The notes beneath the pieces are model-generated. The model was not told where the DNA came from. It saw only the letters and a list, made by a program, of their open reading frames with translations, and searched no databases. DNA of 51,743 bases from the IMG/VR virus record IMGVR_UViG_3300021197_001176, positions 1-51,743 of that record; one strand, written 5' to 3'. Made by a program: the position numbers and the translations under genes. Positions 26,358 through 51,743 of this stretch are shown here, one piece after another. Source of the stretch: a virus. Lineage: Duplodnaviria > Caudoviricetes. Each line of letters opens with the position of its first letter. Positions within the stretch are counted from its first letter, which is position 1.

Positions 26358-26381
26358 GTATAAATGTAAGCCTCATAGTGC

Positions 26382-30907: not shown

Positions 30908-31008
30908 GAATAATAGTAGTGGGCTTACCAAACATACTATTGAATTAATTAAAGAATTAACAAAACCGCAGTACTGCAAGCCTGTTATTCTTTTTGCGTA
31001 ATTTAGAA

Positions 31009-32962: not shown

Positions 32963-32969
32963 AATATCC

Positions 32970-33478: not shown

Positions 33479-33723
33479 AATTCATCTCTCCATTCTTCTA
33501 CTGCTTTAGCACAAAACTCTCTACTAAAACCAAAACTACTAATCAAGAAATTAGTCATCTCATCATCACTTACATTATCGGGGTGTATTTCATCCATCCT
33601 CATTTTTCTTTTAAGGTGGCTTTTCATATTCCTCATACTTGTAATACTTGTCGGCATATCACCTGCATAGCCTGTATCTTTGTCATCTCTAGGTAATTGA
33701 GGCATTAGTACCAACCCCCACAT
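33475..33723 (-). CDS. Hypothetical protein
   Basis: Coupled ORF; start uncertain. Confidence 0.5.
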   Translation of the reverse strand: MWGLVLMPQLPRDDKDTGYAGDMPTSITSMRNMKSHLKRKMRMDEIHPDNVSDDEMTNFLISSFGFSREFCAKAVEEWRDEL

Positions 33724-33894
33724 TTACCACAATAATTAGGGTACATAGGTTTAGCGTAAAATAGTCCTTTTCTTTTACCGCAATTACATCTATGGTCTTT
33801 GAAACTCATTCCTCTTCACCTGTGTAATTTCTACGTGCTTTATACTTTCTATTGTATAGATACAATCGTGCTGCATTCTGTCTTTTGTTAGGCA

Positions 33895-34230
33895 TTACTC
33901 TTCACTCTCCGGTGCTTTACCTTCTCTTATGGTAAAAGTATTTGGTTTTAGCCATACTATATCCTTTCTTGGGCGGATAGTTCGTGTATCATAGTCCGAT
34001 GGATTGGGTACTGTATGTACTTCTTCATGTGGTGATTGTGTCAAGTATAGATTTGCTATTGTGTTTACATCCCAATGACCTTGTTTAACGGTAAAAATAC
34101 TACCGGACTTTAGATGTATGTCTAAATAACCATTTTCGACTATTGCCGCAATCTCTCGTCTATCTATCTTTACTTTTCCGGTATTACAAACTAATGTTTC
34201 ACTCCAATATTCTCTTTTTAATTCACTCAT
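33895..34230 (-). CDS. Hypothetical protein
   Basis: 111-aa ORF in dense cluster. Confidence 0.55.
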   Translation of the reverse strand: MSELKREYWSETLVCNTGKVKIDRREIAAIVENGYLDIHLKSGSIFTVKQGHWDVNTIANLYLTQSPHEEVHTVPNPSDYDTRTIRPRKDIVWLKPNTFTIREGKAPESEE

Positions 34231-34231
34231 T

Positions 34232-34459
34232 TTATATCGCCCCTATTTTATCTTCTAACTCTTGTATTCTCTCTTGTATTTGACAATGCACATCTTCCAT
34301 CTCCATACCTGCATGGTGGCTCATAGATACATCACTAGGCAAACTACTTTCGACTTCGTATATGTAATGTAAAGCATATTCACAAGCCTCTTCCGCCCTT
34401 CTTAGCGTATCTAATTCATCAGCAATCTCTTGTAGTCTGACCTCAATCATCTTACTCAT
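34232..34459 (-). CDS. Acidic coiled-coil hypothetical protein
   Basis: 75-aa ORF. Confidence 0.55.
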   Translation of the reverse strand: MSKMIEVRLQEIADELDTLRRAEEACEYALHYIYEVESSLPSDVSMSHHAGMEMEDVHCQIQERIQELEDKIGAI

Positions 34460-34642
34460 CTAAGCCACCTGCCAATCTGCATAACCTTCTAAATGTATAT
34501 GTTGTTGTAGATTACTTATTACATCATCCATAAACTCATCAATGCTTTGGTGCATCAAATCCGATTCTACGTCAATCTCTATTTCTTCTTCTAATTCTAC
34601 TTTTACTTTTACCGTTATTGTAGTCATCTTACTCATCTCCAT
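34460..34642 (-). CDS. Acidic hypothetical protein
   Basis: 60-aa ORF abutting next gene. Confidence 0.5.
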   Translation of the reverse strand: MEMSKMTTITVKVKVELEEEIEIDVESDLMHQSIDEFMDDVISNLQQHIHLEGYADWQVA

Positions 34643-34752
34643 TCCATTCTTTCAAGGCTCTCATTATCTCTTCAATGTCATCACCATTAAGAGGCTGTTG
34701 TCCATATACATACCATATAAACGTGCATATATCTTCTAATTCTGTATTCATC

Positions 34753-35016
34753 TTACTCACCTCTTGTTTCCACTTTGGGCATACCATTGTAGTGTCTATC
34801 ATTCCAATACTGAAGTGCTATTCCCGAAACCTCATTACCAAAGTCATTTTGAAACCATCGAATAAACAATCCCCATTCTTCATCACTAATTGGTATTTGG
34901 TTTCCTTCTTCGTCTTGATAATCTTCATCATCCATCATATCCTCTATGTGTTCTTTCTCAATGTATTGCCACAATGTCGGCTTTAATTGTTGCCATAATC
35001 TTTCTTCATTATTCAT
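34753..35016 (-). CDS. Acidic hypothetical protein
   Basis: 87-aa ORF, GGAGA RBS. Confidence 0.55.
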   Translation of the reverse strand: MNNEERLWQQLKPTLWQYIEKEHIEDMMDDEDYQDEEGNQIPISDEEWGLFIRWFQNDFGNEVSGIALQYWNDRHYNGMPKVETRGE

Positions 35017-35187
35017 CTAAGGCATCTCCCAATGAAAACTACTATCTATGTCCACATAATCGTCAATATTATTACGAACATAATCCATGTAATCATCAAT
35101 ACTTTGGTGTATCAAATCATCAAACTCAATCTCTATTTCTTCTTCCAATTCTATTTTTACTTTTATCTTAATACTACTCATTCTTCT

Positions 35188-35457
35188 TCACCATCCTTCC
35201 GGTTCTTCTTCTAACATAATCCAATGTGCTTTAATGTCTTTAGTCGAATATATATCTCCGGCATCGGAAGTCCATAGGATTACACCCATGTCTCCAACCC
35301 AATGACTAGCAATCGTCATTGTAATACCGTTGTGTATATTCTCAAACATTACATTTGTTATGTCGTGTTCACCTTCCGGTATAGGGGCAGTCCTTCTTAA
35401 TCTATCATTCTTTATTCTTACTTCTTCTTTATTCATTTTATTCCTCTCCATACGCAT
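35188..35457 (-). CDS. Hypothetical protein
   Basis: About 82-89-aa ORF. Confidence 0.5.
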   Translation of the reverse strand: MRMERNKMNKEEVRIKNDRLRRTAPIPEGEHDITNVMFENIHNGITMTIASHWVGDMGVILWTSDAGDIYSTKDIKAHWIMLEEEPEGW

Positions 35458-35898
35458 TAGCGTCTAACATTCTATGTAGAATAGTTTTAACGTGCAGTAT
35501 TCTTCTTCTTGTTGCTGCATCCTCAATATCTTCTACAATATCGCCATTGTCTATCATATCTAGCATTGAGCGATATATTTCTCTTTCCATTTCCTTTTCA
35601 TATTCTTTACTCATTTTTGTTATCTCCTTTGTCGGCTCTCGCCATGTTTCTAACTAAAGACTTATCCTTTTTAAGTCTGTCGTTCTTGACTCTTAAGCGT
35701 CTTTTTTTATTTAAGAAAAAACTACTCATTCTATTTCCTCTCCATCATCTAATACATTACCGCATGATACTACATATCTTTTTGCTTTACATCTAGTACA
35801 TTCTACATCTACTTCTGTCAATAATCTATTCTTAGATACAACACTTACTGTATAGACTCTTATTACAGACCATACACAACCGTGATATTCACAATCAT

Positions 35899-36165
35899 TC
35901 ATTCTTCTTCACCTCTTGTTAATTGTGTCCTTCTATACCAATCAATCCACTCTAAATGCTCTATAACTGTTTCATCATCTATACATTGTATGCAACAACA
36001 ATCCCATTCATGGTCGGTGCATTCTATTATGAATACCTTTTCTCCATTTCGTATGCCCCAACCCACATATTTACTTGCTTCTACACGATTATAAATATCT
36101 TCGTATGGATTATTACTTTTACCATAAATAAAACCTTGATTATAATATAAGTCGGGCATCTTCAT
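35899..36165 (-). CDS. Cys-rich hypothetical protein
   Basis: ECTDHEWDCCCIQC; coupled to upstream gene. Confidence 0.5.
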   Translation of the reverse strand: MKMPDLYYNQGFIYGKSNNPYEDIYNRVEASKYVGWGIRNGEKVFIIECTDHEWDCCCIQCIDDETVIEHLEWIDWYRRTQLTRGEEE

Positions 36166-36737
36166 TCTACCAACCCCAACCACCAATGAGGGGTACGCCT
36201 ATCATCCCACGTAGCAAACTCCTTGCTATGATAATAGCGTCTATAAGCCTGTATTGCTTCTTCGCCTCTTGCATGACTGATGATACCTTTTTCATCGTCT
36301 GTTATTACAGCAAAGGGCTTACTTACAGCAGTCATATAATCCGGTCTATACTCATCGGGCATAGCGAGAGCAAAGTGTGTACGATTGCCTTCGGGAATTA
36401 GTTTTACCATAGAACTAAGGTGTCTAATACCTGCCTCACAAAAGTGTATTTTACCGTACTTGTTAGTGTATTCTTTACATATCTCTAAAGCATGGCGTAC
36501 AGTCCAAACGTAATTATCGCTACTGTCGCCTACCCATCGAGTACACGGATGATTATGATAGCCACCCTTGAGAGGCGTACCTTTCTTAGTAAGTGGCATC
36601 ATGTCGGGTGTAGCACCATGTCTGATGACACTACTGCCTAGCATTTGTAGCATTTCTACGCACATTTTAGGTAGGTGTTTATTGCAGTAATCTCTAGCCG
36701 CTAATTCGGGGTTTTCATTTAAGACAAATATATTCAT
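36162..36737 (-). CDS. Pyrimidine-dimer DNA glycosylase (DenV/endonuclease V)-like protein
   Basis: MNIFVL....AA...C.KH..KM..E..QML, HNHPCT.W, AYR.YY...K pattern. Confidence 0.75.
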   Translation of the reverse strand: MNIFVLNENPELAARDYCNKHLPKMCVEMLQMLGSSVIRHGATPDMMPLTKKGTPLKGGYHNHPCTRWVGDSSDNYVWTVRHALEICKEYTNKYGKIHFCEAGIRHLSSMVKLIPEGNRTHFALAMPDEYRPDYMTAVSKPFAVITDDEKGIISHARGEEAIQAYRRYYHSKEFATWDDRRTPHWWLGLVE

Positions 36738-36899
36738 AGTAAATCCCTCACATCATCTATCTCTACAATTCCTCTATAAATAATAGGCTTTGCTTGAATA
36801 CCATCACTATATTCTAGTACGACATAGCACTCATCATCTCCATCACACCATGTCCATTCTAACACTCTCATATTTACTTGTATCGTCTTTTTACTCATA

Positions 36900-37292
36900 T
36901 TATACCCTCTCCTTCATAGTATTTAACTGTGTTGATTGTGCTTCTAAAGCGTCATTGTAGGCATCCCTAAGTATCTTAGGCATTTGAGCAGGTGTCGCTC
37001 GCAAATGCTTTAGTGAAACTAATCTCTTTGCTACCTCATGTACGTTGTTAATATCATATTTGTAAACTCTATTTCCATTAACTATTTTCCAATCTTCTTT
37101 TACCTTAAAGAAAAGTCTATCCTTAGATAACAAAGATGCTAATTCACGATGACTACAAAGACCGATTTTCTTTTTACTTAAATCTGCTTTTTCGTATGCT
37201 TGAAGTAAAGAGGCAGCACTTTGTTTTCCGTTATCTCTAATATATCTATAACAGAAATCAGCCATGATTTTTCTAGGTCGCCTACTACTCAT
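36900..37292 (-). CDS. Winged-helix-like basic protein
   Basis: SHRELASLLSKDRLF; shares YDIN and TPAQM with 25959-26357. Confidence 0.55.
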   Translation of the reverse strand: MSSRRPRKIMADFCYRYIRDNGKQSAASLLQAYEKADLSKKKIGLCSHRELASLLSKDRLFFKVKEDWKIVNGNRVYKYDINNVHEVAKRLVSLKHLRATPAQMPKILRDAYNDALEAQSTQLNTMKERV

Positions 37293-37891
37293 TCTTCTTC
37301 ATCCTCACATTCACATTCAAAACAGGAATAACACCCAATACAAAAACCACTATCACATTCAACATAATCGTGTTCTTGCATTTCATCACCACATTCCCAA
37401 CAATACATTACACTATCTTCATCGTTGTCATTTAATCTGACATGACCTGTAATGTATTCACCTGTTTCTAAGATTGGTTCTTCGGTAAAAATAATACCTA
37501 AATCAGATATTTCTTTTATGTCGTCTTTATCTGAACAAGTGCTGTTATTAGAAATAGCACCATAGGGTACGATAGCCAATAAACCTGCATCAACACCCAT
37601 TTCCACACCTCTAATCCATCCACGCATTTCTTTTACGGTATTACTAAACTTCCAAGTACCATCTCCAAAAGGACTATCCCATACCTCTATATTGTAAATT
37701 ATACCATCTATACCCCACTCAATATAAACGGGATAATCGGGACAACCATTATCTTTATTTTCTTTTTCTCCATCCCATAGGGCTGTACAAAACTCATCCC
37801 ATCTATTATCATCTATGACATAGCAGGGGTCGCCTACATAGTACTTGTATTCGTAATAATTTGGTATATTCATAATATCACTCCGTGTCAA
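37289..37891 (-). CDS. Hypothetical protein with YVGDPCY/VDAG motifs and Cys-rich tail
   Basis: YYVGDPCYVI...GVDAGLLAIVP resembles DUF4241-like proteins; C-terminal Cys cluster. Confidence 0.5.
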   Translation of the reverse strand: MTRSDIMNIPNYYEYKYYVGDPCYVIDDNRWDEFCTALWDGEKENKDNGCPDYPVYIEWGIDGIIYNIEVWDSPFGDGTWKFSNTVKEMRGWIRGVEMGVDAGLLAIVPYGAISNNSTCSDKDDIKEISDLGIIFTEEPILETGEYITGHVRLNDNDEDSVMYCWECGDEMQEHDYVECDSGFCIGCYSCFECECEDEEE

Positions 37892-38183
37892 TGTAAGGCT
37901 CTAATCTAAGTCTATCGCACCAAAGCATTGTAAACAATGTCGCTGTAATTTGTCGGTATATTTCTTCTTCATTGTGTCTAAACCACTTTGAATCAATAAA
38001 TTGTTTAGCCATATCTTCGGGCATACCTATCTCTCTCGCTGCTGTATAAAAAGCAGCCCAAATATTATTTTTAGCGTAATTCTTAGCGTAAGAAATATTA
38101 GTGTTAAAGTCGTGTTCACCGTATAATGTCTCTATCTCTTCATCATACTTGTGTAAGTTAGTTAGTGTATCTTTTAGTGCCAT
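37878..38183 (-). CDS. Hypothetical protein
   Basis: 101-aa ORF, GAGG RBS. Confidence 0.55.
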   Translation of the reverse strand: MALKDTLTNLHKYDEEIETLYGEHDFNTNISYAKNYAKNNIWAAFYTAAREIGMPEDMAKQFIDSKWFRHNEEEIYRQITATLFTMLWCDRLRLEPYIDTE

Positions 38184-38185
38184 AT

Positions 38186-38455
38186 TTATTCCTCTTCTTC
38201 TATTTCATCACCTAGAAAATTAAACTCACAATCAAAGGACACAGTATCTAAAGTCCTAGAATCTACTTTTACGGGTATTATAATATCTTTGTGTGTTTCT
38301 TTATCTTGCATACCGAAGAAATTGAAATCACTTGTTTCATCATTTTTATCAACGACTATAATTCTAAGCAAATGCTTAATATCACCTTCGCCTCTTAATA
38401 TTCTTATTTCTTTTATGCCGTGTCCATTCATACCTATGCTATTCATTTTATTCAT
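38186..38455 (-). CDS. Hypothetical protein
   Basis: Coupled ORF. Confidence 0.55.
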   Translation of the reverse strand: MNKMNSIGMNGHGIKEIRILRGEGDIKHLLRIIVVDKNDETSDFNFFGMQDKETHKDIIIPVKVDSRTLDTVSFDCEFNFLGDEIEEEE

Positions 38456-38679
38456 CTCCTAAATCCTTGATTCCATTCTTCTAAATTATTTTGGATGTTT
38501 ACATTTGCATCCTGCCAATCTTTTAGTATTTGCTCTATGTCCCATGTTGCTCTATTTATTTTATTGTATTCAACATCGTCTACTATATTTGTATCTCTAT
38601 TCAGTTTATGTAGTGCATCCATAGCATTTTCTAATTCTGTTAGGGCTAAGTCTACCATCTCTTCTTCTCTTTTACTCAT
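38452..38679 (-). CDS. Coiled-coil hypothetical protein
   Basis: Preceded by class II promoter motif and GGAGA. Confidence 0.6.
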   Translation of the reverse strand: MSKREEEMVDLALTELENAMDALHKLNRDTNIVDDVEYNKINRATWDIEQILKDWQDANVNIQNNLEEWNQGFRR

Positions 38680-39017
38680 ATATATCTCTCCTTTTCCATC
38701 TTATTTAAGTCTGTTGTTTGTGATTCTAAAGCGTCATCAGCCCATCTACCATCAGCGATTCCATGATACTCACTATTGATTCCGAATATTCTGTTAAACC
38801 AAATTACTTTTACCTCATCAGTATCTCTATCTAAATCACAATAAGCAGCAATCAATTCATTCATAAAATAAAAATAATCTTCTATAAAAAGCGATTTACC
38901 GTCAATCCATTCTACAACCAAGTAAAGTTTGTTTTCTCCGAAATCTAAATTGAAATCTGTATTAGATTCGTTTATCCAATTATAAACTTGATTTGTAATA
39001 ATATTTAGATTAGCCAT
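38676..39017 (-). CDS. Hypothetical protein
   Basis: 113-aa coupled ORF. Confidence 0.55.
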   Translation of the reverse strand: MANLNIITNQVYNWINESNTDFNLDFGENKLYLVVEWIDGKSLFIEDYFYFMNELIAAYCDLDRDTDEVKVIWFNRIFGINSEYHGIADGRWADDALESQTTDLNKMEKERYI

Positions 39018-39226
39018 TATGCGTTCACCTCTTTATCAAACTCTTCTTCATTAAATTGAATAGTTTTACCGTTAATACAAATACCTGTAATATCTGATAA
39101 AACCGCTACCCTATCCCTATCTTTGAAAGCGACTGTAATAGGGTAATCTAACCAATCAAAATCATTTCTATCTTTTTCTCTTAACTCAAAAACATAACCG
39201 ATTATATCATTTAATGTTAAACTCAT
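39017..39226 (-). CDS. Hypothetical protein
   Basis: GAGGTGA RBS. Confidence 0.55.
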   Translation of the reverse strand: MSLTLNDIIGYVFELREKDRNDFDWLDYPITVAFKDRDRVAVLSDITGICINGKTIQFNEEEFDKEVNA

Positions 39227-39636
39227 GCAATCACCTCAGTTTCTTTTACGACAAAAGAAGGGAATATCTGATGTACTCTTTCTAACAATGCTTGACATAC
39301 TCCACAATCTTCATCATACATATCAATTAAATCGGTATTTTCTTCAATTTGTGCTAAGTAATAATTACTTGTTAGATAATTCATAACCATTTTCTTTGTC
39401 AAAGGCGTAATAGGGCCTGTATTATATTCCCAATCGTGAATTGCCTGTTTAGCATCAGATTTGGATATAACTTCTTCACTATAATAATCCGGTCTGCCTA
39501 CATTAGTAATATAACCGATAAGCATGGCTATATCTGTATCATCTAAAACCGATGGTGTCGGTCTTACAGTCATCATTATTCTTCCGTTTTGTCTCTCGCA
39601 TATTTCACCGTGTCTGCCGTGTCTCGTTCTTGTCAT
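39223..39636 (-). CDS. Hypothetical protein
   Basis: Class II promoter and GGAGTGA RBS upstream. Confidence 0.55.
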   Translation of the reverse strand: MTRTRHGRHGEICERQNGRIMMTVRPTPSVLDDTDIAMLIGYITNVGRPDYYSEEVISKSDAKQAIHDWEYNTGPITPLTKKMVMNYLTSNYYLAQIEENTDLIDMYDEDCGVCQALLERVHQIFPSFVVKETEVIA

Positions 39637-39713
39637 ATATCTCACTCCTTTTTCATTCTATTTAACTATACCGTTTGTGATTCCTAAGCGTCATTTTTGT
39701 AGTCAGTCTTAGG

Positions 39714-39745
39714 AGTAAGTAGAGGGTACTACCCCTCTACTTACT
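39714..39745 (-). terminator. Perfect 13-bp hairpin downstream of the DUF932-like gene
   Basis: AGTAAGTAGAGGG-TACTAC-CCCTCTACTTACT. Confidence 0.6.
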
Positions 39746-39757
39746 TTTACGATAATT

Positions 39758-40747
39758 CTAAGCGTACATCTCCGTGATAGTCTCCCATGCGTTTGACTTC
39801 ATTCTTGCACCCGACCCTACGATTGCTGATTCTACTTTGCTATCGCTTGATTTGCCGTCTTTGGTATGACTCCAAGAATGGTCGATGTATTCGGTAGCCA
39901 CATTGAAAGCCGCCCATGCACTATTTTCCATGCCGTTGATAGTATTCGTATCTGATGTTTCTAAGTCTAACAAAGTGGTTAGAGTATTTTGACCTCTAGT
40001 GCCTAATCCGTAAGGGTTGTTAGCATCATAATCTTTGCCGCCCTTCATCATATCTTCATTTTGTTTTAGCCCTAAAGTATCTATGTAGAAATTAATTCTC
40101 TCATCTTGAGACATTTCAACATTGATTAATTGTGTCGCTGTTTCCATGAATGTCTGATTGAGATGGTCTACAATTTTTAGAGCCTCTACCAATTGTGCAA
40201 TCCTATCTTCTTGTCGTGCTGAATGTCTGATAGTTAGAGCATTTTTATTGATACCCATTTTATTCAATAGACTTTGCATATATGTAAATTGATTACTGCA
40301 AGCAATTCTTACATTTGAGGGTAAAATACGGATGCCGCCCGAACCGTCATTTGTGTTCATCAGCATTATGTACTGCTCTACATCATCCATCCCACCGATA
40401 GAGAATCCTTCCGGCATCTTAAAAGATGCTACGATTTTTCTACCATTATCTACAAGTCCAATCCTATCCCAAATTACTTTTTCTCTTTTTACCAAATCGT
40501 CAGATATGTTTAACAGTCTTTCATTTTGCATAACTTTGTATGTGCCTTTTACGACACCAAAAGTCTCATCGGTATCTTCTCTAAATGTCCTAAATTGGTT
40601 AGGTATAACCTTACCATCTTTAGTATAGATAGATTCCATACCTATATTGAAATCGGCATTTGCATTCTGCAATACCTCTTTCACAGTCGTTCCTTGTGCT
40701 TCTTTTCCAAATCGGGCATAAGCCCCTAGCATATTTCTCATACTCAT
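39758..40747 (-). CDS. DUF932 (TIGR03299-like) phage/plasmid protein
   Basis: FGVV...Y.VMQNE, NTNDGSG, RIACSNQ, IRHS, AWAAFNVATEYIDH. Confidence 0.85.
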   Translation of the reverse strand: MSMRNMLGAYARFGKEAQGTTVKEVLQNANADFNIGMESIYTKDGKVIPNQFRTFREDTDETFGVVKGTYKVMQNERLLNISDDLVKREKVIWDRIGLVDNGRKIVASFKMPEGFSIGGMDDVEQYIMLMNTNDGSGGIRILPSNVRIACSNQFTYMQSLLNKMGINKNALTIRHSARQEDRIAQLVEALKIVDHLNQTFMETATQLINVEMSQDERINFYIDTLGLKQNEDMMKGGKDYDANNPYGLGTRGQNTLTTLLDLETSDTNTINGMENSAWAAFNVATEYIDHSWSHTKDGKSSDSKVESAIVGSGARMKSNAWETITEMYA

Positions 40748-40748
40748 T

Positions 40749-41081
40749 TTATTTATCTCCTTTTTTATTTATTTTTTCGTTTTCTTCTGTTGGTGTGGGT
40801 ACTTCTCCCACAAAACTAACTAATTTCTCATTAGTTATAAGTGCTTCCTTCTCGCTTCTTAAGCGTCTAATCTCACTTTGTCTTACAGCCATATTCATAA
40901 TTGCTCTCGCTTCTTCTTTTCTTTCAGATTCATTATACTTATCTTTAGCATAATTACTTTTAGCCCTAATCAAAGGTGCGTTTGCATCGTACTTACTAAC
41001 TATTGTTTTCATCGTAGCATTTTTATGAGTATTGACTGTAAAGTCAAAATCTTGTAATGCTTCTATCGGTGTTTTTCTCAT
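40749..41081 (-). CDS. Hypothetical protein
   Basis: GGAGA RBS. Confidence 0.55.
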   Translation of the reverse strand: MRKTPIEALQDFDFTVNTHKNATMKTIVSKYDANAPLIRAKSNYAKDKYNESERKEEARAIMNMAVRQSEIRRLRSEKEALITNEKLVSFVGEVPTPTEENEKINKKGDK

Positions 41082-41222
41082 ATTAATTTCTCCTAACGTA
41101 ATCTATCACTTTTTTCATTAATTCCTTCCACTCTATAATATGCTTATCATCTATCCTCGATGTGTATTTTATCATATTAATTTCTCCTTTTTCTTTTTAC
41201 TTAAATCTATTCTTCTTGACTC

Positions 41223-41462
41223 TTAAGCGTCATCACTATTTTCTTGAACGTGATTTTCTAATTCGTACCAATTGATATTACCCAAATCAATGAAATCTGA
41301 AAAGAAATTACCGTAAGCAATAGATTCTTGAATTGCTTCGACTTCTTGTTCTAGTGTCTCTTTTATGAAATCTAAATCTGCTTTTCCTCTTGGCTCAAAA
41401 TGTAAATTAATAAGCCATGTTTCTCTATTTGTCCATCCGTTGTAATCCGTTCTATTCGTCAT
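41223..41462 (-). CDS. Conserved-type phage hypothetical protein (YNGWTN.ETW motif)
   Basis: YNGWTNRETW N-terminus and INW.EL C-terminus; class II promoter upstream. Confidence 0.65.
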   Translation of the reverse strand: MTNRTDYNGWTNRETWLINLHFEPRGKADLDFIKETLEQEVEAIQESIAYGNFFSDFIDLGNINWYELENHVQENSDDA

Positions 41463-41493
41463 ATTTCTAACTCCTTCTTCATCTTATTTAAGT

Positions 41494-41754
41494 CTACTCT
41501 TCTTGAGTCTTAAGCGTATCTTGGTCGAATGTATCTTTTGAATATAGAGACTTTAAGTGTGCCGTGTATATTCCATCAATTTCATTTAATTCTTCTATTA
41601 ATCTAATGTATATTGCTGATACATTTCCTTCACCCATTAAATCCCTAGTCCCGTTTTCAAGGTTTTCTAGGTCTTGAAAGAATTGCTCTTTCATATCTTT
41701 TTGGTGTTTCATCATTTCTTCGTTCTTAAACGGTATTAGTGCTTCTTGGCTCAT
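41494..41754 (-). CDS. Hypothetical protein
   Basis: Class II promoter upstream. Confidence 0.55.
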   Translation of the reverse strand: MSQEALIPFKNEEMMKHQKDMKEQFFQDLENLENGTRDLMGEGNVSAIYIRLIEELNEIDGIYTAHLKSLYSKDTFDQDTLKTQEE

Positions 41755-42186
41755 AAACTAAACTATATGTGCTAGTATTTAAGCCTGTCGTTTGTGAGTC
41801 TTAAGCGTCATTTTTAGTTTTGTAGGCAGTTTTATTTTTCGGATTTCATAATGTTTTGTAGGCATCTTTAGTGATTTTAACTGCTTATAAACTACGCAAA
41901 AAATGTTTTGTAGTCAGTCTTACACTTATCTAGGAGTGCCTACAAAACTTTATCTTAAAAATAAAAAAAGTGGGATGCACCCGAAATGGATGCACCCCGA
42001 AAGGTATTTTGACCTTAAAAGAAAGTCCTCTTCCGAACCTAATGCCGGAAGGCTTTCTTTTCTTTTTCGTTAAATGTAAAAGCAGTTTCCGAAAGTTTTC
42101 GCCTACTCGTCAATAGGTTATTCACAATCTCGCATCATACTTAGGATGCAGCCCGAAATCAACGCTCAACGGGCGGGAGTGGGATT

Positions 42187-42309
42187 TTAGAATTGATTTG
42201 CATTCAATCCTAAGTCGTCAATCATTTGTCTAGCCCAAAGGGTTAGAGCCGGATTTGAGTTTCTCAAATCTTTTCGATTCTGTAATGTGGGGCGTAAATC
42301 TTTAGCCAT
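42187..42309 (-). CDS. Micro-protein (40 aa, MAKDLRPTL...QMIDDLGLNANQF)
   Basis: Start abuts upstream stop (TAAATG). Confidence 0.5.
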   Translation of the reverse strand: MAKDLRPTLQNRKDLRNSNPALTLWARQMIDDLGLNANQF

Positions 42310-42381
42310 TTATTTTCGCCCCCAATATAATTTACCTGCTTTCGTGTCGTCAATCATTTGCTGTAATTCTTCGGTTGTCAT
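42310..42381 (-). CDS. Micro-protein (23 aa, MTTEELQQMIDDTKAGKLYWGRK)
   Basis: Class II promoter plus AGGAGA RBS. Confidence 0.55.
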   Translation of the reverse strand: MTTEELQQMIDDTKAGKLYWGRK

Positions 42382-42454
42382 ATTCTGTTTCTCCTACAAT
42401 TTATTCTTATTCTTTATCTTATTTAATACACTCGTTTGTGATTCTTAAGCGTCT

Positions 42455-42652
42455 TTAATACATCTCCTTAATCGATAATTGGGAATTACCGGATGAATCT
42501 TCAACACTAGTAAAATCTATTGCGACAGTAGCATTTCTACTAAGTCTTTTTACTCCTAGATTTTCTCTCTCATTTTTCTTAAATCTTTTTATTTGCTTCT
42601 CTAAGTCATGGATATTCCATACCCCATATATCTCTTTTTTGTTTTGGCTCAT
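42455..42652 (-). CDS. Hypothetical protein
   Basis: Class II promoter plus AGGAGA RBS. Confidence 0.6.
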   Translation of the reverse strand: MSQNKKEIYGVWNIHDLEKQIKRFKKNERENLGVKRLSRNATVAIDFTSVEDSSGNSQLSIKEMY

Positions 42653-42699
42653 ATTTAATTCTCCTTTTTCATTTTATTTAATATACTCGTTCTTGATTC

Positions 42700-42858
42700 T
42701 TAAGCGTCTTTTAGGTCGTATTCTAACTCATTTAATTTCTCTCTTAGAATTGAGTATAGACTCACTCTTTGAGTCCAATTTAATTTGTTTTCCAAATCAC
42801 CTAATTCCTTTTGAAATGTGTATTCTAAGTTTTCTGCTGCTGTAATATCTGATACCAT
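42700..42858 (-). CDS. Micro-protein (52 aa, MVSDITAAEN...YDLKDA), absent from ORF track
   Basis: Class II promoter plus AGGAGA RBS; stop codon lies within the next promoter motif. Confidence 0.6.
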   Translation of the reverse strand: MVSDITAAENLEYTFQKELGDLENKLNWTQRVSLYSILREKLNELEYDLKDA

Positions 42859-42905
42859 ATTTATTTCTCCTTTCTCATTTTATTTAATACCCTCGATTCT
42901 GATTC

Positions 42906-43490
42906 TTAAGCGTTGCAGTTTTCACAAATAATCCTCGCTTTGAAAAAATGTTCTTCGGGTAATTTGTATTTTATATCATCGGCATGGATTTTTGAAGCCG
43001 ATATTACAGGACTGATTTTTTGACATGATGAACAAACTCCATCATATTTTAAGAATTGAAAATGTGGGACTGATTTTACTTTTACCGCATTTTCTAATTC
43101 CCAATTTGCTACGGTTCTTTTGAGTGGGATATTTTCTTTTCGGGCAATTTTAACAATTTTTATTTTATCCTGCATAGCATCGAAAATATATTCTGATTTT
43201 GAAAGAGGATTATAATTATTGAAATCGTGATTATTGATTGCATTGATTTTGATTTTTGACATTCTCGATTGAGAACAATTCGGTAAATGCTGACGGATTG
43301 GACAGCCGCATTTTCTAGTACCTTTGAAATTAGGATTTTTTGAACCGATTCTATTTTGAATCCAAGTTTCTGATTTTTTACCTGACCCGCCTTTTTTACC
43401 TCTACTAGAAGCGACAGGACATTTTTCACCTTCGGGGTGTATTCTACCTTTACAGGCTTTATATCTGCATGGTTTTCTGACTTTACTCAT
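42906..43490 (-). CDS. Basic Cys/His-rich DNA-binding protein with degenerate HNH-like C-terminus
   Basis: C..C...H.....C, GSKNPNFKG, CGC...H...C, CSSC...IHADDI...ICENCN. Confidence 0.55.
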   Translation of the reverse strand: MSKVRKPCRYKACKGRIHPEGEKCPVASSRGKKGGSGKKSETWIQNRIGSKNPNFKGTRKCGCPIRQHLPNCSQSRMSKIKINAINNHDFNNYNPLSKSEYIFDAMQDKIKIVKIARKENIPLKRTVANWELENAVKVKSVPHFQFLKYDGVCSSCQKISPVISASKIHADDIKYKLPEEHFFKARIICENCNA

Positions 43491-44308
43491 AAATTATAAT
43501 ATATTCTCATAGTATATATACTTAACCCATTCCTGCATCATTGGTTTTGTAGGCGGCTTTTTAGTGGTTTTTTTGAGATATTCAATGTTTTGTAGTCGTA
43601 CATACCGAATTATTATTTTTCAGAAAAAAGAAATTATTTTTATTTCATATAAAAGTTTTGTAGTCAGCGTTATATTTTCTTAAGACCGCCTACAAAACAT
43701 TACTTAGTGCATATATTACACTTGATGAGTTTTTAGCACTAACTTACATTCACAACACCGGAATTGTTTTGTAGGCAGTAGTTTTGTAGGCACTTTTTGA
43801 GTGGTTTACTTTTTGCACCGCCGCAGTACAGCGTTTTTTTTGTTTTGTAGGCAGCAAAAATAATCTCCGAATAGGTGGGTCTTGACAGACCTAATTTGAA
43901 GTGCCTACAAAATGTTTTGTAGGCGAAAATCGCATATATCATTTTGCCTATACCAGATGGGCTGAAGGTATATATACTTAACTATATAAATACCTCAATG
44001 TTTTGTAGGCAGCAAAAACGGTAAAAAATCTGCATTAAGTGTAAAAAGTAAACTAAGTGTAAAAAAAACACTAGATAACAAAAATAAACTTGTTTTGTAG
44101 GCAACGCTAAAAAGTGCTAAGACTGACTACAAAACGCCTACCGGCAGGTTTATATAGTCAAACATAGACGGAAGGTTGTGCGAAACACCCAAAATATTTC
44201 GACTGATGAATGTTTTGTAGGCACCACTAAACACAAACAAAAACCCCCGCCTAAAGGCGGGTAAAAAAGACCACCTACAAAACGTTTTGTAGGCAGTATA
44301 AAATAAAT

Positions 44309-44336
44309 AAAAAAAAGGTGGGCTTTCGCCCTAACC
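44309..44336 (-). terminator. Hairpin (GGGC-GAAA-GCCC) plus T-run
   Basis: Directly at the stop of 44331-44501. Confidence 0.7.
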
Positions 44337-44501
44337 TTCTTCATCCAACATTTTTTGGATTTCTTCATATATTTTGTCTCTTTTTTCTTCGGGTAGTTGA
44401 CAAAAATCACAAACTACCTCTTCGGGTTCGGGTTCGCCCCAAACATCTACATTCGTTCCACATTCAAAGCATTGTTCAACCATATGTACGCCCCACGCCA
44501 T
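44331..44501 (-). CDS. Zinc-finger micro-protein (56 aa), absent from ORF track
   Basis: CFEC...CDFC; class I promoter 19 nt upstream, hairpin and T-run downstream. Confidence 0.7.
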   Translation of the reverse strand: MAWGVHMVEQCFECGTNVDVWGEPEPEEVVCDFCQLPEEKRDKIYEEIQKMLDEEG

Positions 44502-44659
44502 GATTAACCCTACGTTTAGAGGTATATATACTTATCTATGGAGTCTATCTAATGTTTTGTAGGCAGCCTTAGCATAATCTAAAGACGACTACAAAATATG
44601 TTTTGTAGTCGGGAACGTTGTAGAACAACCTTGGTGCCTACAAAATAATACAATTAAAT

Positions 44660-44695
44660 AAAAAAAAGGGATAAGACGGTCGCCCGAAGGCGACC
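44660..44695 (-). terminator. C(UUCG)G hairpin plus T-run
   Basis: Minus strand GGTCGCC-TTCG-GGCGACC then a T-run, after 44707-45003. Confidence 0.75.
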
Positions 44696-44706
44696 CCCTA
44701 ATCCGT

Positions 44707-45003
44707 TTAAGGTAGAATGTGATTTTCAATCCATTCTGCTGCTTTGCTATTATTCCAATCGTGTTCATCTTTGGCCTCATCATAAAAATGAGATAGCATA
44801 TTCTTTAGAGTTGTGATTCTTACTCTAGTAGATTTATTTTCAAAATCTTCAATGCAATCTCCCGCATCAATAGAATCTAACATAATTGCATAAATCTCCA
44901 TTTCTTCAGTCGTTTCTTTTACCATATTTTTTCTTGTAGTCATTACTTTTTTCACCCCCGTTTTTTTCAGCCCTTTGGGCAAATTGTCCTCAGCATACAC
45001 CAT
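44707..45003 (-). CDS. Hypothetical cassette protein
   Basis: 98-aa ORF bounded by 42-bp elements and a terminator. Confidence 0.6.
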   Translation of the reverse strand: MVYAEDNLPKGLKKTGVKKVMTTRKNMVKETTEEMEIYAIMLDSIDAGDCIEDFENKSTRVRITTLKNMLSHFYDEAKDEHDWNNSKAAEWIENHILP

Positions 45004-45102
45004 ATATATACCTGCCGGTACAGTACCCTCAATGTTTTGTAGGCACCCTTAACAGAATCTAAAGGCGACTACAAAATATTTTGTAGGCAGCCGCCGCAGG
45101 AT

Positions 45103-45165
45103 AAAAAAAGTTGCCCCGCACCCACGAATAAAAGGTGCGAGGTCTTGGGCTTTCGTTGTTATTTT
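45103..45165 (-). terminator. Conserved 3' leader plus hairpin plus T-run, copy 1
   Basis: Stem CCTCGCACC/GGTGCGGGG; shares 28 bp with copy 2. Confidence 0.7.
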
Positions 45166-45167
45166 AT

Positions 45168-45515
45168 TTATCTAAGAATTGGGATTTCGCTACCTGTTGA
45201 AAAATCCCAAATTGCTTTCTGATTGTTTCTTTTGGCTACTCTCAAAGCGACCTCGATGTTTGAATAAATTGCTATTGGGTCAAAAACAATTTTTGAATTA
45301 TTAGGATTATTTTTTGACAATCCTAATTTTTCAGTCCACACACCAACATAATTTGCTTTTGGGTATTTTTCAAGTACGGCCAAAAACATAAATAATGTGT
45401 GGTCTTGTGAGTGAGTTGCGAAAGCATCTCCCTTTTCTAAACCAACCGCATATCCTGCGGTTGGAGTTGCTGGCATTCCATTACGGTAGTATGTCCCGTC
45501 TGCTATTTGTCGCAT
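45168..45515 (-). CDS. Cassette protein, weak resemblance to phage SAM-lyase-like folds
   Basis: GYAVG, YVGVW, A.RVAKRNNQKAIWDF; class I promoter 19 nt upstream. Confidence 0.6.
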   Translation of the reverse strand: MRQIADGTYYRNGMPATPTAGYAVGLEKGDAFATHSQDHTLFMFLAVLEKYPKANYVGVWTEKLGLSKNNPNNSKIVFDPIAIYSNIEVALRVAKRNNQKAIWDFSTGSEIPILR

Positions 45516-45748
45516 ATATCGAGGACCGTATGCCGGTATATATACTTATTGTTTTTGTTGGTGTAATGTTTTGTAGTCAGTCAAAATAAAAAATAAAGAA
45601 GCCTACAAATATATTTTGTAGGCACCACAAAAAAAGTGCCTCACACCCCACCTATTTACGAATAAATAAAGATGCCTACAAAATTGCTAATATGTTTTGT
45701 AGTCAGACTTAGACAAGTGTAAAGGTGCCTACAAAACTAAGTGGTAAG

Positions 45749-45820
45749 AAAAAAAATGCCCCGACACACAATGCCCGAATAAATGCGTGTGTCGAGGACT
45801 TGGGCTTTCGTTGTTATTTT
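45749..45820 (-). terminator. Conserved 3' leader plus hairpin plus T-run, copy 2
   Basis: Stem CCTCGACACA/TGTGTCGGGG. Confidence 0.7.
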
Positions 45821-45828
45821 TTCAGTTT

Positions 45829-45948
45829 TTAATCCTTGTGCAATTCTTCAAATAGTTCCGCTATTTCATTAAAATGCTCATCTAATATTTTTTGCATTTC
45901 TTTTATTTCATTTTCTAATTTATGCATTTCATCTTTTAGGTTTCCCAT
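45829..45948 (-). CDS. Acidic coiled-coil micro-protein (39 aa), absent from ORF track
   Basis: MGNLKDEMHKLENEIKEMQKILDEHFNEIAELFEELHKD; class I promoter 20 nt upstream. Confidence 0.7.
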   Translation of the reverse strand: MGNLKDEMHKLENEIKEMQKILDEHFNEIAELFEELHKD

Positions 45949-46169
45949 GTATCTTCATAGAAGGGTACGGTATATATACTTATTGTTTAATTATTTTATT
46001 GTTTTGTAGTCAGTTTTGTAGTCAGTTTTTCTTTTTGTTTTTTAATTTTGTAGGCAGACCTAGACTTTGTTAAAGATGACTACAAAACAAACCCCCAATA
46101 CCTAATGTTTTGTAGGCAGCGTTAGATAATTACAAGAGTGCCTACAAAACTTAACGTCATAAAGAATAG

Positions 46170-46196
46170 ACCCCCCTCTAAAGAGGGGGGTTTTTT
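46170..46196. terminator. GC-rich hairpin ACCCCCCTC-TAAA-GAGGGGGGT
   Basis: Just past the stop of 46207-46995; the T-run is on the plus-strand side. Confidence 0.6.
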
Positions 46197-46206
46197 GTAG
46201 GCACCC

Positions 46207-46995
46207 TTAATTCATAGATGCCCTCTCTCTAAAGATTATAGTTAAGTTTCTAGCACTTCTCTTTTCTCTTGGTTGTCCTTTGTGTGTGAAGTTCCATTCA
46301 TATTCGGTATATTTTGACCCGAATGTCGGTGCTGTATCTACTACCGGAAATCCTTTTGCATCTAATCCGATAATGTGGCCGTCTACTCCGTATCTGAATC
46401 CTACGGGAATATATTTTTGTCTATCATCAGAATCTAGTGTCATCCATAGAGCCTCGGCAATTTTCTGGAATGAATTGGTTTTGATTCCTCTACCAAATGA
46501 CATCATTGAATCATCAATTTTATCTTGTAATAATTTAATCATGTCGTGCATCTCTTTAGTAGTGTAGTTATAATCAATTTCTTGTTTCATAGGGTAAACT
46601 AAATCCCCGTTTTCGTATTTCTTGAACCAATCAATACTTGAGTAAGATGAAGGCTCTTTTCTTACGTTTTGTGTTAATGCTTTTGTAAATCCTTGAGGGA
46701 CTGAGCAGTTCTTTGAATCACAATGTGGACACTGACTTCTGAAATCTGATTTGGTAGGGCTTCTCAATTCAATTCCGAATGAATGTACTGAGTCTTTCAA
46801 TGCTTCTGATGTATCAAAGTAAGTGTGTCCGTATTTGCTGTTGGTAATTATATCAAAGTGATTCCATACAGCATTAACACATACATTGATGTTGCGGTTT
46901 TTAGCATTGTTTGAACCATCAATATATGATTGACGAGAACCTTCGTTCTCTTCGTTTAAGAGATAATTTGTATATTTGTTATCCATTTTATTCAC
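46207..46995 (-). CDS. Hypothetical protein with CPHC motif
   Basis: 262 aa; AGGTGA RBS near start. Confidence 0.65.
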   Translation of the reverse strand: MNKMDNKYTNYLLNEENEGSRQSYIDGSNNAKNRNINVCVNAVWNHFDIITNSKYGHTYFDTSEALKDSVHSFGIELRSPTKSDFRSQCPHCDSKNCSVPQGFTKALTQNVRKEPSSYSSIDWFKKYENGDLVYPMKQEIDYNYTTKEMHDMIKLLQDKIDDSMMSFGRGIKTNSFQKIAEALWMTLDSDDRQKYIPVGFRYGVDGHIIGLDAKGFPVVDTAPTFGSKYTEYEWNFTHKGQPREKRSARNLTIIFRERASMN

Positions 46996-47006: not shown

Positions 47007-47038
47007 AGATTGAAGAGGGCCTAAGCCCTCAACAATCT
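47007..47038 (-). terminator. Intergenic hairpin with internal loop
   Basis: AGATTG-aa-GAGGGC-ctaa-GCCCTC-aa-CAATCT. Confidence 0.55.
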
Positions 47039-47973
47039 TATTCCTCTACTCCCGATACTACATTCATAATATCTGTTATTGGTCTGTTTTCTTTGTTGAT
47101 TTGTGCTAGATTTGATTCAGTCATATGAATCGCTGCAAATCCGATTGAAGGGAAGAAGGACGCTTTTAATTCGCCGCCACAAGTAATCTTTTCAGTATTC
47201 TTGATTACTAGTCCACTATCTGAAACTATCATTTTAGGTGATTTATGACATTGACGAGGTGCTACGAAAGGCACTCCATCTATGTCATATCCTACTATTG
47301 TTCTACTGTTTTTCTCATGCTTCGGTGTCATTTTTACAGCACAATTATTACAGCCACAATCTAAAGAACGAACACCATCTACACTTCTTGAGGTCGCTGA
47401 ATATGTAAACTTGTTATCCTTTTTACCTCGGTTATTTAGTGGGTTCATACCTACAATTTCCCATTCATATCCATTGAATGAAGCAATTGGCATTTCATAG
47501 ATTCTTGATTCAAACTTAGTAGTTATATTTGATACAAAATAACCATGCTCAAGATTCCAAAGAGATGTTTCTTCATGGCATACTGAGCCTCTCAATTCAT
47601 TTTTTCTGATTGTACAAACAGGCTTGTTATTTGTTTTATCGGAAAAGTGTGCATCATTGTGATTACATTTTGTGCAAACATATCGCATTTCAGTAATGTA
47701 ATTAGTCGCTGATATTTGAGGACTAGATTTATTCTCTAATGATTGAGAATGTCTAATGTGGTTTACTAAAGTCATTTTGAAAGATGATTTGAAAGGTACT
47801 ATTTCACCATCCCAAACATTATTTTCAACATCAGTAAATTGAATCGAGTTCAATCTCTTGATGATAAATCTAGGACTTGATAAAATCTTAGATTTATCTT
47901 TAACTTGAGTAAAGCGGAATGCTTCACCAACCTCAAGTGATATACTATCGTGTATATCTAACGTATTCGTCAT
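47038..47973 (-). CDS. Cys-rich hypothetical protein
   Basis: CTKC, CGCNNC; start reassigned to MTNTLD after AGGAGA. Confidence 0.6.
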   Translation of the reverse strand: MTNTLDIHDSISLEVGEAFRFTQVKDKSKILSSPRFIIKRLNSIQFTDVENNVWDGEIVPFKSSFKMTLVNHIRHSQSLENKSSPQISATNYITEMRYVCTKCNHNDAHFSDKTNNKPVCTIRKNELRGSVCHEETSLWNLEHGYFVSNITTKFESRIYEMPIASFNGYEWEIVGMNPLNNRGKKDNKFTYSATSRSVDGVRSLDCGCNNCAVKMTPKHEKNSRTIVGYDIDGVPFVAPRQCHKSPKMIVSDSGLVIKNTEKITCGGELKASFFPSIGFAAIHMTESNLAQINKENRPITDIMNVVSGVEE

Positions 47974-48187
47974 ACTATCGTCATCTCCTATGTGCAAAAA
48001 CTCACCCATGCTACGCATGGGTGTTGTCAGGTACTTAATGGTTATGACGTGGCATTCTCTCGCAAAAAGTGCGTTTTTAGGCTAATTTGCGGGTTTTTAG
48101 CACTTTCCAAAGGTTTTTCACTATGCCATACTTTTGCCCGCCAACCACCGCTTACAATTTTTTATAATTTTTTTGAAAAATATTTTT

Positions 48188-48466
48188 TTATATTTTTTTC
48201 CACTCAAGTTTGTGTGCGCCGGGTTTCCTACGCCATTTTACTTGGTTAGTACGTTTCAAGTACGTTGGTACTATATTCCTAGAAAGCGGTGTCCAATAAT
48301 TACTTACATACTTATTTGCTTTCCACGCAATTTCTTCTGACGTTTTCCAATCGTCTAAATATCCTTCATCCATTATTTTATCAATAGATTCCTTATAGAC
48401 AATCTTTTTGCTTTTAGGGCCATGCCTTCTTACTTCCGGGTTTTGTTTGTTGTATCGTTTCTTCAC
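48188..48466 (-). CDS. Basic winged-helix-like protein downstream of terminase
   Basis: 92 aa, WKTSEEIA...; abuts terminase stop. Confidence 0.55.
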   Translation of the reverse strand: MKKRYNKQNPEVRRHGPKSKKIVYKESIDKIMDEGYLDDWKTSEEIAWKANKYVSNYWTPLSRNIVPTYLKRTNQVKWRRKPGAHKLEWKKI

Positions 48467-49981
48467 TTACCATCCTCTCCTATCTATTATTTTTCCACCA
48501 AGACCTTCATGTTTGCTTATTCGTTGCATTTGTGTTTCACCACCTAACCAATCGCCGCCTTTCATGGTTTTCATAATTACCGGCATATCGGGTGTCCTGT
48601 ATGTGAATTGGTCTATGGCGTGTGCAAATGCCATAACAGTATCGTTATGTCTGCCTAAATCTACAATTAACCCATCACGCCACGCATGAGTCTCTAATTC
48701 CTGTAATAATATACCTACCTTTGTTCTAGTAGTGTCATTACCAAATGGGAATATTATCATTTCTCTTTCAAACCAAACTCTAAGCCTATTTAGTAATCCT
48801 TGCTTTAATGTCCTATTACTAACCTTACTAGCCCTGTAATCTACTACCGCACCTTTTTGTGCAAGCAAACTTTCGTACATTTGTTGGAAACCTACATCCT
48901 CAACCGCTATCGGACAATTACCGTAGCGTTTAGTCCACTCTATTAACATATCTGCTTGTTTATCCGGTGGAAAGTCATTTCTTCTCCACATATCTACAAA
49001 ATGGATATAACCGTCATCATCTTGTTTCAAACAAACCATAACGCTGTAATCTTGCCCTAATCCATGTGCAGGGTCAAAACCTATAACATATCTGTACCCA
49101 TCCATCTTATCAGTCTGTAATATAGCATCCATATCCATATTTTTTCTAATTAGCATTCTAGGAAACACACTAGCCTCATCATCTACTACTTTACACAAAT
49201 ATTCCTGTACAAAAGATAATTCACCCATAGCCTCTTTTTGTTCTAGTAAAAACTTAATAGGTCTATATTCGGCCCATAACTCTACAGGCTTAATATTTAG
49301 TGGGTCAGCCTTATGTTCATCCCAATTAGGAATAGCAGACCATGTACCCGATTTCCATGTTTTATTCTCTAGCATTTCTGTATGGTACAAATCATTCATA
49401 CTCATAGGTGTACCTACTACGAAAATTGCTGTACCGGGACTCAACATAGGTGTAATTTTCTTTCTAAACCATTGTGCTATGTTATTCCAATTCATATCCC
49501 CCATATCATCAAGAACGTCATCAAATGCAATAGCCGCAGGGTGTTCTCCACGAATAGCCGCACCAACAGAAGTAGCACGAATCCATGCACCGTTAGTAAA
49601 ACGGATTTCTAGTTTGTTGCCCCTCTTAGGGTCGAGATACCTAGATAATTGAGGGTGTCTTTTCATATCTTCTCTTATTTCTTCTAACCTTCTGACTGCA
49701 AGGTCTTTACTAGCAGAAAACAACCAACAAGTAAAAGGTTTATTACGCCATTGTTCAAAAAGAGCCATGTGTAATAGTTTTACCCTTAAAGTAGTAGATT
49801 TACTGTGGTCCCTCGGTGCAATAATACAAACACGGTGTACAGAAGAATTGTCGTGATTATCTCCGTACATATCTACCCACTCACCTATATGTTCTCCCCA
49901 AGTATAACCTAACCACTTGTAGAAATACTCTACGTCATTACGACTACGTTCCATAGAAAAATTAGTATTGAATGTAGCCAT
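48467..49981 (-). CDS. terL: Terminase large subunit
   Basis: Walker A APRDHSKST, IRG, Walker B IAFDD, VVGTP, F.QEY, nuclease GFDPA...QDYS...HNDTVMA. Confidence 0.92.
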   Translation of the reverse strand: MATFNTNFSMERSRNDVEYFYKWLGYTWGEHIGEWVDMYGDNHDNSSVHRVCIIAPRDHSKSTTLRVKLLHMALFEQWRNKPFTCWLFSASKDLAVRRLEEIREDMKRHPQLSRYLDPKRGNKLEIRFTNGAWIRATSVGAAIRGEHPAAIAFDDVLDDMGDMNWNNIAQWFRKKITPMLSPGTAIFVVGTPMSMNDLYHTEMLENKTWKSGTWSAIPNWDEHKADPLNIKPVELWAEYRPIKFLLEQKEAMGELSFVQEYLCKVVDDEASVFPRMLIRKNMDMDAILQTDKMDGYRYVIGFDPAHGLGQDYSVMVCLKQDDDGYIHFVDMWRRNDFPPDKQADMLIEWTKRYGNCPIAVEDVGFQQMYESLLAQKGAVVDYRASKVSNRTLKQGLLNRLRVWFEREMIIFPFGNDTTRTKVGILLQELETHAWRDGLIVDLGRHNDTVMAFAHAIDQFTYRTPDMPVIMKTMKGGDWLGGETQMQRISKHEGLGGKIIDRRGW

Positions 49982-51532: not shown

Positions 51533-51743
51533 TGTACTGTCCTGCTCATATCGTCTTATAATACTTATTTATTTTGTTCTTTTCGTGTTTAACAAAATTA
51601 AAAAAACGCTTTACTAAAAGCCTATGTTTGAATTAATTTATTCTTTCTTTAGTATGGGTAGGCGGCGGCCCTGTCTATCTATTACTCTTTTAGTTATTAA
51701 CTTCATCCATACTATAGAAGAAATAAAATAAATAGAAAGAATT

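Follow-up and report, generated by a model that had tools for sequence, protein, structure and literature searches.

A lineage-specific box array and its candidate partner gene, ORF326, in a magrovirus-like virus

What recognizes the repeated elements that crowd a few kilobases of a viral genome, and to what end? The question is raised by a 51,743-nt stretch of tailed-virus DNA (IMG/VR record IMGVR_UViG_3300021197_001176, the whole of which we call the window). Nine 42-bp polar inverted elements lie there directly downstream of the terminase operon, amid small leftward open reading frames (ORFs), several of which are followed by a terminator-like hairpin. The original prediction, made from the letters of this DNA, read the elements as sites for a dimeric protein, with a geometry like that of recombination sites and a role in cassette exchange, in DNA entry or packaging control, or as a decoy for a host factor. 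We find that they are head-to-head pairs of a 10-base box, filling the gaps between small-gene cassettes, and that the box varies in concert with a nearby gene, ORF326, whose cysteine-rich, beta-rich product is the candidate box-binding protein.

Eight of the nine elements are exact TTTTGTAG-N26-CTACAAAA matches, for which 0.00 were expected in 100 shuffles; the ninth (45569-45610) ends in CTACAAAT, a final T already recorded by the original prediction. The rest of that description also stands: the layout is 17+8+17, TA flanks the core in 16 of 18 arms, eight of the nine elements combine a G arm with a T arm and the elements face both ways, and all nine cores are different. What repeats is a unit shorter than the element. 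The outer ten bases of each arm form the box TTTTGTAG(G/T)C, which occurs exactly 38 times in the window (0.31 expected), 37 times within 41818-46202 and once at 39695. With a looser match, 39 boxes are found in 41.8-46.25 kb; 18 make up the nine elements, and the other 21 occur as singles, as back-to-back pairs and as inward pairs of 45 and 70 bp. Each gap between genes holds the box 2-8 times, in pairs.

The same element is present in eleven other loci, some perhaps from one population (counts omit L184, an unrelated single match, and L196-L198, the window's own record). Among 35 distinct elements in these close relatives, 29 are G/T pairs, six are G/G and none is T/T. Spacing and polarity are thus conserved at this range, which favours the proposed reading as putative protein-binding sites. 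Element position, orientation and, very nearly, the core are retained, and the ORFs in between come and go, so that the elements do lie between exchangeable cassettes, as had been suggested. A CRISPR-like reading is ruled out, as the DNA between boxes is orthologous between relatives and carries promoters and terminators.

We extended the comparison to the best 80 of 104 terminase relatives. Many have a high-copy motif at the same locus, with a lineage-specific consensus: TTTTGTAGGGT, TTTTGTAGTCT, TTTGTAGCAT, TTTTGTAAC, TTTTGTAGTT, TTTGTAGAT, TTTGTTGGT, TTCGTAGGG and others. Genomes hold 30-80 candidate sites within one region of 4-9 kb; the complete genome G004 has most of its matches in a single 8-kb block (63.8-71.8 kb of 72 kb). 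The 26-nt spacing does not generalize. It recurs only in the window's lineage and is lost in relatives whose terminase is 95-99% identical, and other lineages favour back-to-back palindromes or other spans. Boxes lie outside ORFs of at least 100 amino acids (aa) in the window, L133 and G001.

The gene that follows the box is ORF326, whose family (30 representatives at 50% clustering) has conserved cysteines and lies next to the array, facing either way. We compared the 35 loci whose sequence extends at least 3 kb downstream of the terminase: box density is 3.2-10 per kb in all 28 that carry an ORF326 homolog and 0.2-0.6 in all seven that do not. The window, L102, L106, L113 and L112 share terminases that are 95-99% identical; their ORF326 proteins are 24-26% identical if the box differs and 59-92% if it is the same, and L169 and L167 repeat the pattern (terminase 96%, ORF326 27%). 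Box type therefore tracks the ORF326 allele, not the terminase, and at least eight box types occur, each with its own allele. Low ORF326 identity does not always signal a new box, because L123 and L142 have a common box with ORF326 proteins merely 34% identical. Orthologous sites are converted to the resident box consensus, and a cassette ORF 95% identical between the window and L112 is surrounded by different boxes; together, these findings argue against simple hitch-hiking.

The boxes also stand in a fixed relation to promoters. On the minus strand, each of the six TATA boxes in the array (TATATATA) is preceded by a box at 23-24 nt, and four are followed by an ATG at 29-30 nt. The distance from box to TATA is still 24-25 nt in L112 and L113, although both the box consensus and the intervening DNA differ there, and more distant lineages have fixed distances of their own (12 nt in L142 and L120; 6 nt in L169, at four promoters). 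A nearby box accompanies 37 promoter candidates; in six it falls between TATA and ATG, and all six have an atypical TATA-ATG distance of 47-61 nt. Matches to a sigma-70 consensus (18, against 15.8 in shuffles) do not stand out, and the array promoters are of the TATA type. Terminator-like hairpins number ten where 3.1 are expected; three of them are back-to-back box pairs.

From what we observe (box number and position, the fixed TATA distance, the lineage-specific consensus, and the co-occurrence and co-variation with ORF326), we consider it probable that ORF326 binds the boxes. That it thereby serves the virus as a private activator, working on the cassette promoters from upstream, is our leading proposal, to which we give a probability of roughly 0.45. 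ORF326 would be made first, in the window virus from a TATA promoter with no box nearby; the 230 nt upstream of the window's ORF326 contain no box, which fits the need of such a cascade's first step. The protein would then bind boxes cooperatively and aid loading of the host factors TBP and TFB at neighbouring TATA boxes. Recruitment of TBP or TFB from upstream is a known mode of Ptr2 and TFB-RF1 (PMC5569661; this and later papers are cited for the parts of their text drawn on), and the placement of boxes upstream of the B recognition element (BRE) and TATA fits known archaeal activators. The 42-bp pair may be the two-protein spacing preferred in the window's lineage, with the G/T asymmetry keeping the pair from becoming a perfect hairpin. 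Cassette gain and loss would be a side effect, through short-homology recombination at any repeated piece.

Several observations weigh against an activator. Most boxes do not adjoin a promoter; box distance and orientation relative to TATA vary between lineages, and L102, L153 and G001 yielded no box-promoter combination under the TATA definition used here. In 11 of 11 arrays, the majority of boxes point the same way with respect to the terminase side, whichever way transcription runs, and of the 77 boxes in L142, 26 fall inside ORFs of both strands, all in one orientation. Repression by spreading from upstream sites is also known, as with SvtR and AvtR (PMC5569661). The seven negative loci reduce to about four lineages, of which two are nested among viruses that have the array; one genome without ORF326, G003, is 92% complete. 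Because ORF326 is linked to the array, the co-variation could partly reflect hitch-hiking, and the gene comparison covered up to 10 kb from the terminase. In L180 and L192, moreover, one element joins the left arm of element 5 to the core of element 4, a hybrid that a crossover near the core edge could produce.

The protein itself offers little help. Pfam, PHROGs, NCBIfam and the ESM Atlas returned no recognized DNA-binding domain for ORF326, and the window's protein has a net charge of 0, both of which count against the proposal as well. For two models of family members (predicted template modelling scores of 0.69 and 0.70), Foldseek matched nothing in PDB or BFVD at E ≤ 0.001; their best VIA Z scores were 2.4 and 3.6, mostly over the N-terminal 40-60 residues, which is not proof of a new fold. 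A sequence search against solved structures gave just weak zinc-ribbon matches to ribosomal eL43. Because neither family nor fold can be assigned, the argument for DNA binding is entirely genetic.

Other roles for the boxes must be set against the activator. The original prediction compared the elements to loxP and attC sites and named host dif sites for a further comparison, and inverted arms, a TA-flanked 8-bp core and cassette turnover between elements do invite that comparison; we nonetheless regard site-specific recombination for cassette exchange as highly improbable, since geometry, cores, most junctions and the lack of a recombinase in the records searched speak against it. The 56 window ORFs include no recombinase, as had been noted, and a search for one elsewhere came back empty: PF00589 and PF00239 matched none of five viral records, two of them complete and array-bearing, with controls matching in 14 and 13 of 14; a host enzyme could still act on the elements. 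Cores differ within the genome and drift at orthologous positions. The 17-8-17 geometry is not retained across box types and is unlike the 11-6-11 of dif (PMC2958812). As for an attC-like hairpin, none of the records searched has an integrase, arm positions 11-15 pair in 16 of 45 cases against 21.5 with shuffled partners, and pairing overall is 60 of 175 against 81.2; inner arms that pair less than shuffled partners give no sign of a selected hairpin. Five relatives yielded four distinct cassette-loss junctions, three of which lie outside cores, at a back-to-back box pair, an A tract (a junction that recurs in run X19) and an 11-nt box end. The fourth, in L183, spans an entire element and allows no finer placement; it and the L180/L192 hybrid also count in favour of recombination. 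No inverted cassette was seen among the relatives, although the elements face both ways; assembled contigs lose rare variants.

It is unlikely, on the evidence assembled, that ORF326 is instead a repressor or roadblock of the stoperator kind, silencing the cassette region late or in a carrier state and excluding superinfection by viruses of the same box type. The number of asymmetric sites (30-80 per genome) and a consensus that shifts together with a linked gene do parallel the stoperators of Cluster A mycobacteriophages (PMC6550527), swapped alleles in viruses that are nearly identical would suit immunity groups, and in L142, L112 and L169 the likely TATA of the ORF326 homolog itself has a box no more than about 12 nt away. 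Yet boxes sit upstream of BRE/TATA and not over the start site, their orientation is not tied to transcription, none of the five records has an integrase, and nine of 18 ORF326 homologs, the window's included, lack a box in the upstream 230 nt. We judge equally unlikely that the array is a DNA-transaction site (an origin, a packaging start or the first-entering end) that ORF326 coats, any effect on promoters being secondary, as in baculovirus homologous region (hr) arrays or plasmid iterons. A single dense cluster beside the terminase operon in each genome, exemplified by G004, the genome-fixed polarity, the L142 boxes inside ORFs, and the non-coding character of the densest part of the window array, which has a second conserved palindrome set, are in keeping with such a site. 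Against it, the lineages nested among array-bearing ones that lack both ORF326 and boxes indicate that not all these viruses need the system, 10-11 bp helical phasing is absent from 12 arrays, and assembled contigs cross the region, though contigs cannot show genome ends; contig ends do pile up downstream of the terminase, in a way not separable from assembly branching. Repression or exclusion and an origin, packaging or entry role account better than an activator for the excess of copies and the genome-fixed polarity. Improbable, finally, is a host protein (an activator, a chromatin protein or a decoyed defence factor) that binds the boxes with ORF326 as a linked passenger. ORF326 has no known DNA-binding fold, and the host-encoded Sta1 activates archaeal viral promoters (PMC1635249), but in all 35 loci the array is present or absent together with ORF326, and the consensus switches precisely when the ORF326 allele does.

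Activation, repression or exclusion, and an origin or packaging role could also be combined, by analogy with baculovirus hrs. A broader possibility, which we hold more tentatively than activation, is that a new DNA-binding family and its 30-80-site array, rewritten when the gene is swapped, form an exchangeable self-recognition module that divides viruses otherwise nearly identical into private groups, for regulation or exclusion, and may mark a genome end or origin.

The system might be likened to a blend of stoperator-repressor pairs, the PeSL cassettes of T4-type phages and the intergenic promoters of halovirus HF2; no homology to any of these was found. Cluster A stoperators likewise comprise tens of asymmetric 10-13 bp sites per genome whose consensus diverges with a virus-encoded protein. 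The array described here differs in being confined to 4-9 kb and placed upstream of TATA, its candidate partner has no helix-turn-helix (HTH) match, such as an immunity repressor that blocks elongation would show, and no integrase accompanies it, and orientation follows the genome (terminase side) here but transcription there (PMC6550527). Promoter-ORF-terminator cassettes in a variable region, with recombination between repeated regulatory DNA, are common to PeSL, and our array has repeated promoter and terminator modules around variable ORFs with exchange at repeats; as described in part of PMC2839356, PeSL consists of a sigma-70 promoter and stem-loop without a multi-copy lineage-specific box or linked partner gene. 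HF2, a tailed archaeal virus, has repeated intergenic promoter modules of two classes, but there the repeats are the promoters themselves, whereas here a separate box, 2-8 per gap, tracks a variable gene (PMC8707807). Baculovirus hrs are also arrays of imperfect palindromes and act as early-gene enhancers and origins; they belong to an unrelated realm and host, and our array occurs once per genome, interleaved with cassettes (PMC4535591). Ptr2, TFB-RF1 and the viral AvtR and SvtR share sites upstream of BRE/TATA, with TBP/TFB recruitment or spreading repression, but they are described as HTH or ribbon-helix-helix proteins with few sites, in contrast to cysteine-rich, beta-rich ORF326 and its 30-80 candidate sites (PMC5569661). 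Literature searches, which took in few subscription papers, and main-text passages of four magrovirus papers (PMC11706807, PMC10160649, PMC5332604, PMC5434244) gave no published description of the box array and its partner gene.

Coordinates of the array, its parts and neighbouring genes are collected in the table.

Table. Features of the box array and its surroundings (positions in the window).
Feature	Positions	Strand	Remarks	Basis
Box array	41818..46202	.	37 exact TTTTGTAG(G/T)C (26 +, 11 -); 0 within ORFs of at least 100 aa	exact count
Element 1	41906..41947	.	core CACTTATC; head-to-head box pair; same position in relatives	exact match
Element 2	43656..43697	.	core TATTTTCT; orthologous pair in GGGT-box lineage spans ~45 bp	exact match
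Element 3	44093..44134	.	core AAAAGTGC	exact match, relatives
Element 4	44555..44596	.	core GCATAATC; left box is promoter-proximal box of 56-aa ORF	exact match
Element 5	45035..45076	.	core ACAGAATC; promoter-proximal box of 78-aa ORF	exact match
Element 6	45569..45610	.	core ATAAAAAA; degenerate; promoter-proximal box of 115-aa ORF	inspection
Element 7	45695..45736	.	core GACAAGTG	exact match, relatives
Element 8	46046..46087	.	core GACTTTGT	exact match, relatives
Element 9	46108..46149	.	core GATAATTA; sole G/G pair in window	exact match
70-bp inward box pair	43843..43912	.	followed by back-to-back pair	inspection
Further 70-bp inward pairs	44213-44282, 45614-45683	.		inspection
45-bp inward pair	44601-44645	.		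inspection
TATA, putative promoter	43513..43520	-	BRE-like flank; box 24 nt upstream; ATG of 194-aa ORF 30 nt downstream	
TATA	43969..43976	-	box 24 nt upstream; in relatives, no conserved ORF follows	
TATA	44523..44530	-	box 24 nt upstream; ATG 29 nt downstream	
TATA	45003..45010	-	box 24 nt upstream; ATG 67 nt downstream	
TATA	45537..45544	-	box 24 nt upstream; ATG 29 nt downstream	
TATA	45971..45978	-	box 23 nt upstream; ATG 30 nt downstream	
194-aa ORF	42906..43490	-	Cys/His-rich; family also in box-less relatives	
56-aa cassette ORF	44331..44501	-	missing from several relatives	
78-aa cassette ORF	44707..44943	-	missing from several relatives	
115-aa cassette ORF	45168..45515	-	L112 copy 95% identical in DNA, with other box type around	
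39-aa cassette ORF	45829..45948	-	relatives have 41-, 73- or 129-aa ORFs in its place or beside it	
Terminator-like hairpin	41972..41998	-	with T run	
Further terminator-like hairpins	44246-44261, 46170-46191			
ORF262	46207..46995	-	invariant Cys39, His207 and Asp220 in 8 aligned members	alignment
ORF326	47038..48018	-	cysteine-rich, beta-rich orphan; candidate box-binding protein	binding predicted
Large terminase	48467..49981	-	anchor for fetching relatives	

Other genes near the array were considered as partners and rejected. ORF262, whose invariant Cys/His/Asp pattern may be akin to that of papain-like proteases, gave nothing usable in Pfam, PHROGs, NCBIfam or the ESM Atlas and is not found in GGGT-box or reverse-orientation lineages, which excludes it as a general partner. 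ORF194 and DUF932 fail by their distribution, and the small winged-helix-like ORF after the terminase is near-identical across box types. Past this last gene, an A-tract-rich segment (48130-48195), conserved in forward-orientation lineages, marks the edge of the ORF326 module swap and could mark a genome end.

Further motifs accompany the array. A second upstream motif, CGCTTAAGA, has nine copies in 25551-42912 (six in 41221-42912 and 40857) and lies 53-54 nt before an ATG in six of nine copies, probably as a second promoter class. Its variant ACGCTTGCGA occurs in L166 and G003, and in the box-less L166 ten of 11 copies lie 54-55 nt before an ATG; motifs at such fixed upstream distances appear to mark promoter classes in these viruses. 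Run X16 has a 255-nt deletion (42418-42674) at CGCTTAAGA repeats. The near-palindrome CGCAGTACAGCG with a T run, possibly a third promoter-class motif, is found at 43822-43838, 30849-30977 and 51600-51615; in relatives it also precedes the terminase operon, and in L123, L142, L133, L138 and L155 it precedes the ORF326 homolog by about 50-60 nt. Region 43545-43976 combines a conserved promoter and the densest box cluster with no conserved ORF after it, making a non-coding transcript possible; Rfam gave no family, with three weak matches far under gathering scores. Palindromes of the type GTGYA-N5-TRCAC, a candidate origin or packaging signal, stand at 43707, 43804 and 44039 in the array's non-coding centre; many relatives, among them some without boxes, also have them downstream of the terminase. 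In G004 (L199 11600-16009), back-to-back boxes with CGCGCG-rich centres recur every 61-63 bp, so that the same box is arranged in a different higher-order pattern.

The hosts of magroviruses form one of the most abundant groups of uncultured archaea. Among the 56 ORFs searched in the window are genes for PolB, a clamp loader, an ERCC4 nuclease, a GroEL-type chaperonin, tail proteins and the large terminase, and the window's DNA is present in marine sequencing runs. Set against published magrovirus gene content (PMC5434244, PMC10160649, PMC5332604), the PolB, clamp loader, ERCC4 nuclease, chaperonin, tailed-virus structural block and marine source indicate that it is likely a magrovirus-like virus. 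Its host is likely a member of Poseidoniales, as judged by gene content and archaeal-type promoters, not by a tree with named magroviruses. Scanning 185,579 cellular genomes for the element gave three single matches in unrelated bacteria, and none of the cellular genomes searched held a terminase relative; an initial viral scan returned 96 stretches, with the array in just eight loci from four contigs and single matches in the remainder. In the literature searched, we found no published regulatory circuit for magroviruses.

ORF326 and its boxes offer a testable protein-site pair with natural specificity variants, for which a binding test needs no cultured host. If the pairing is true, ORF326 would represent a new family of sequence-specific DNA-binding proteins, and its alleles and arrays would amount to a lock-and-key turnover between otherwise almost identical viruses.

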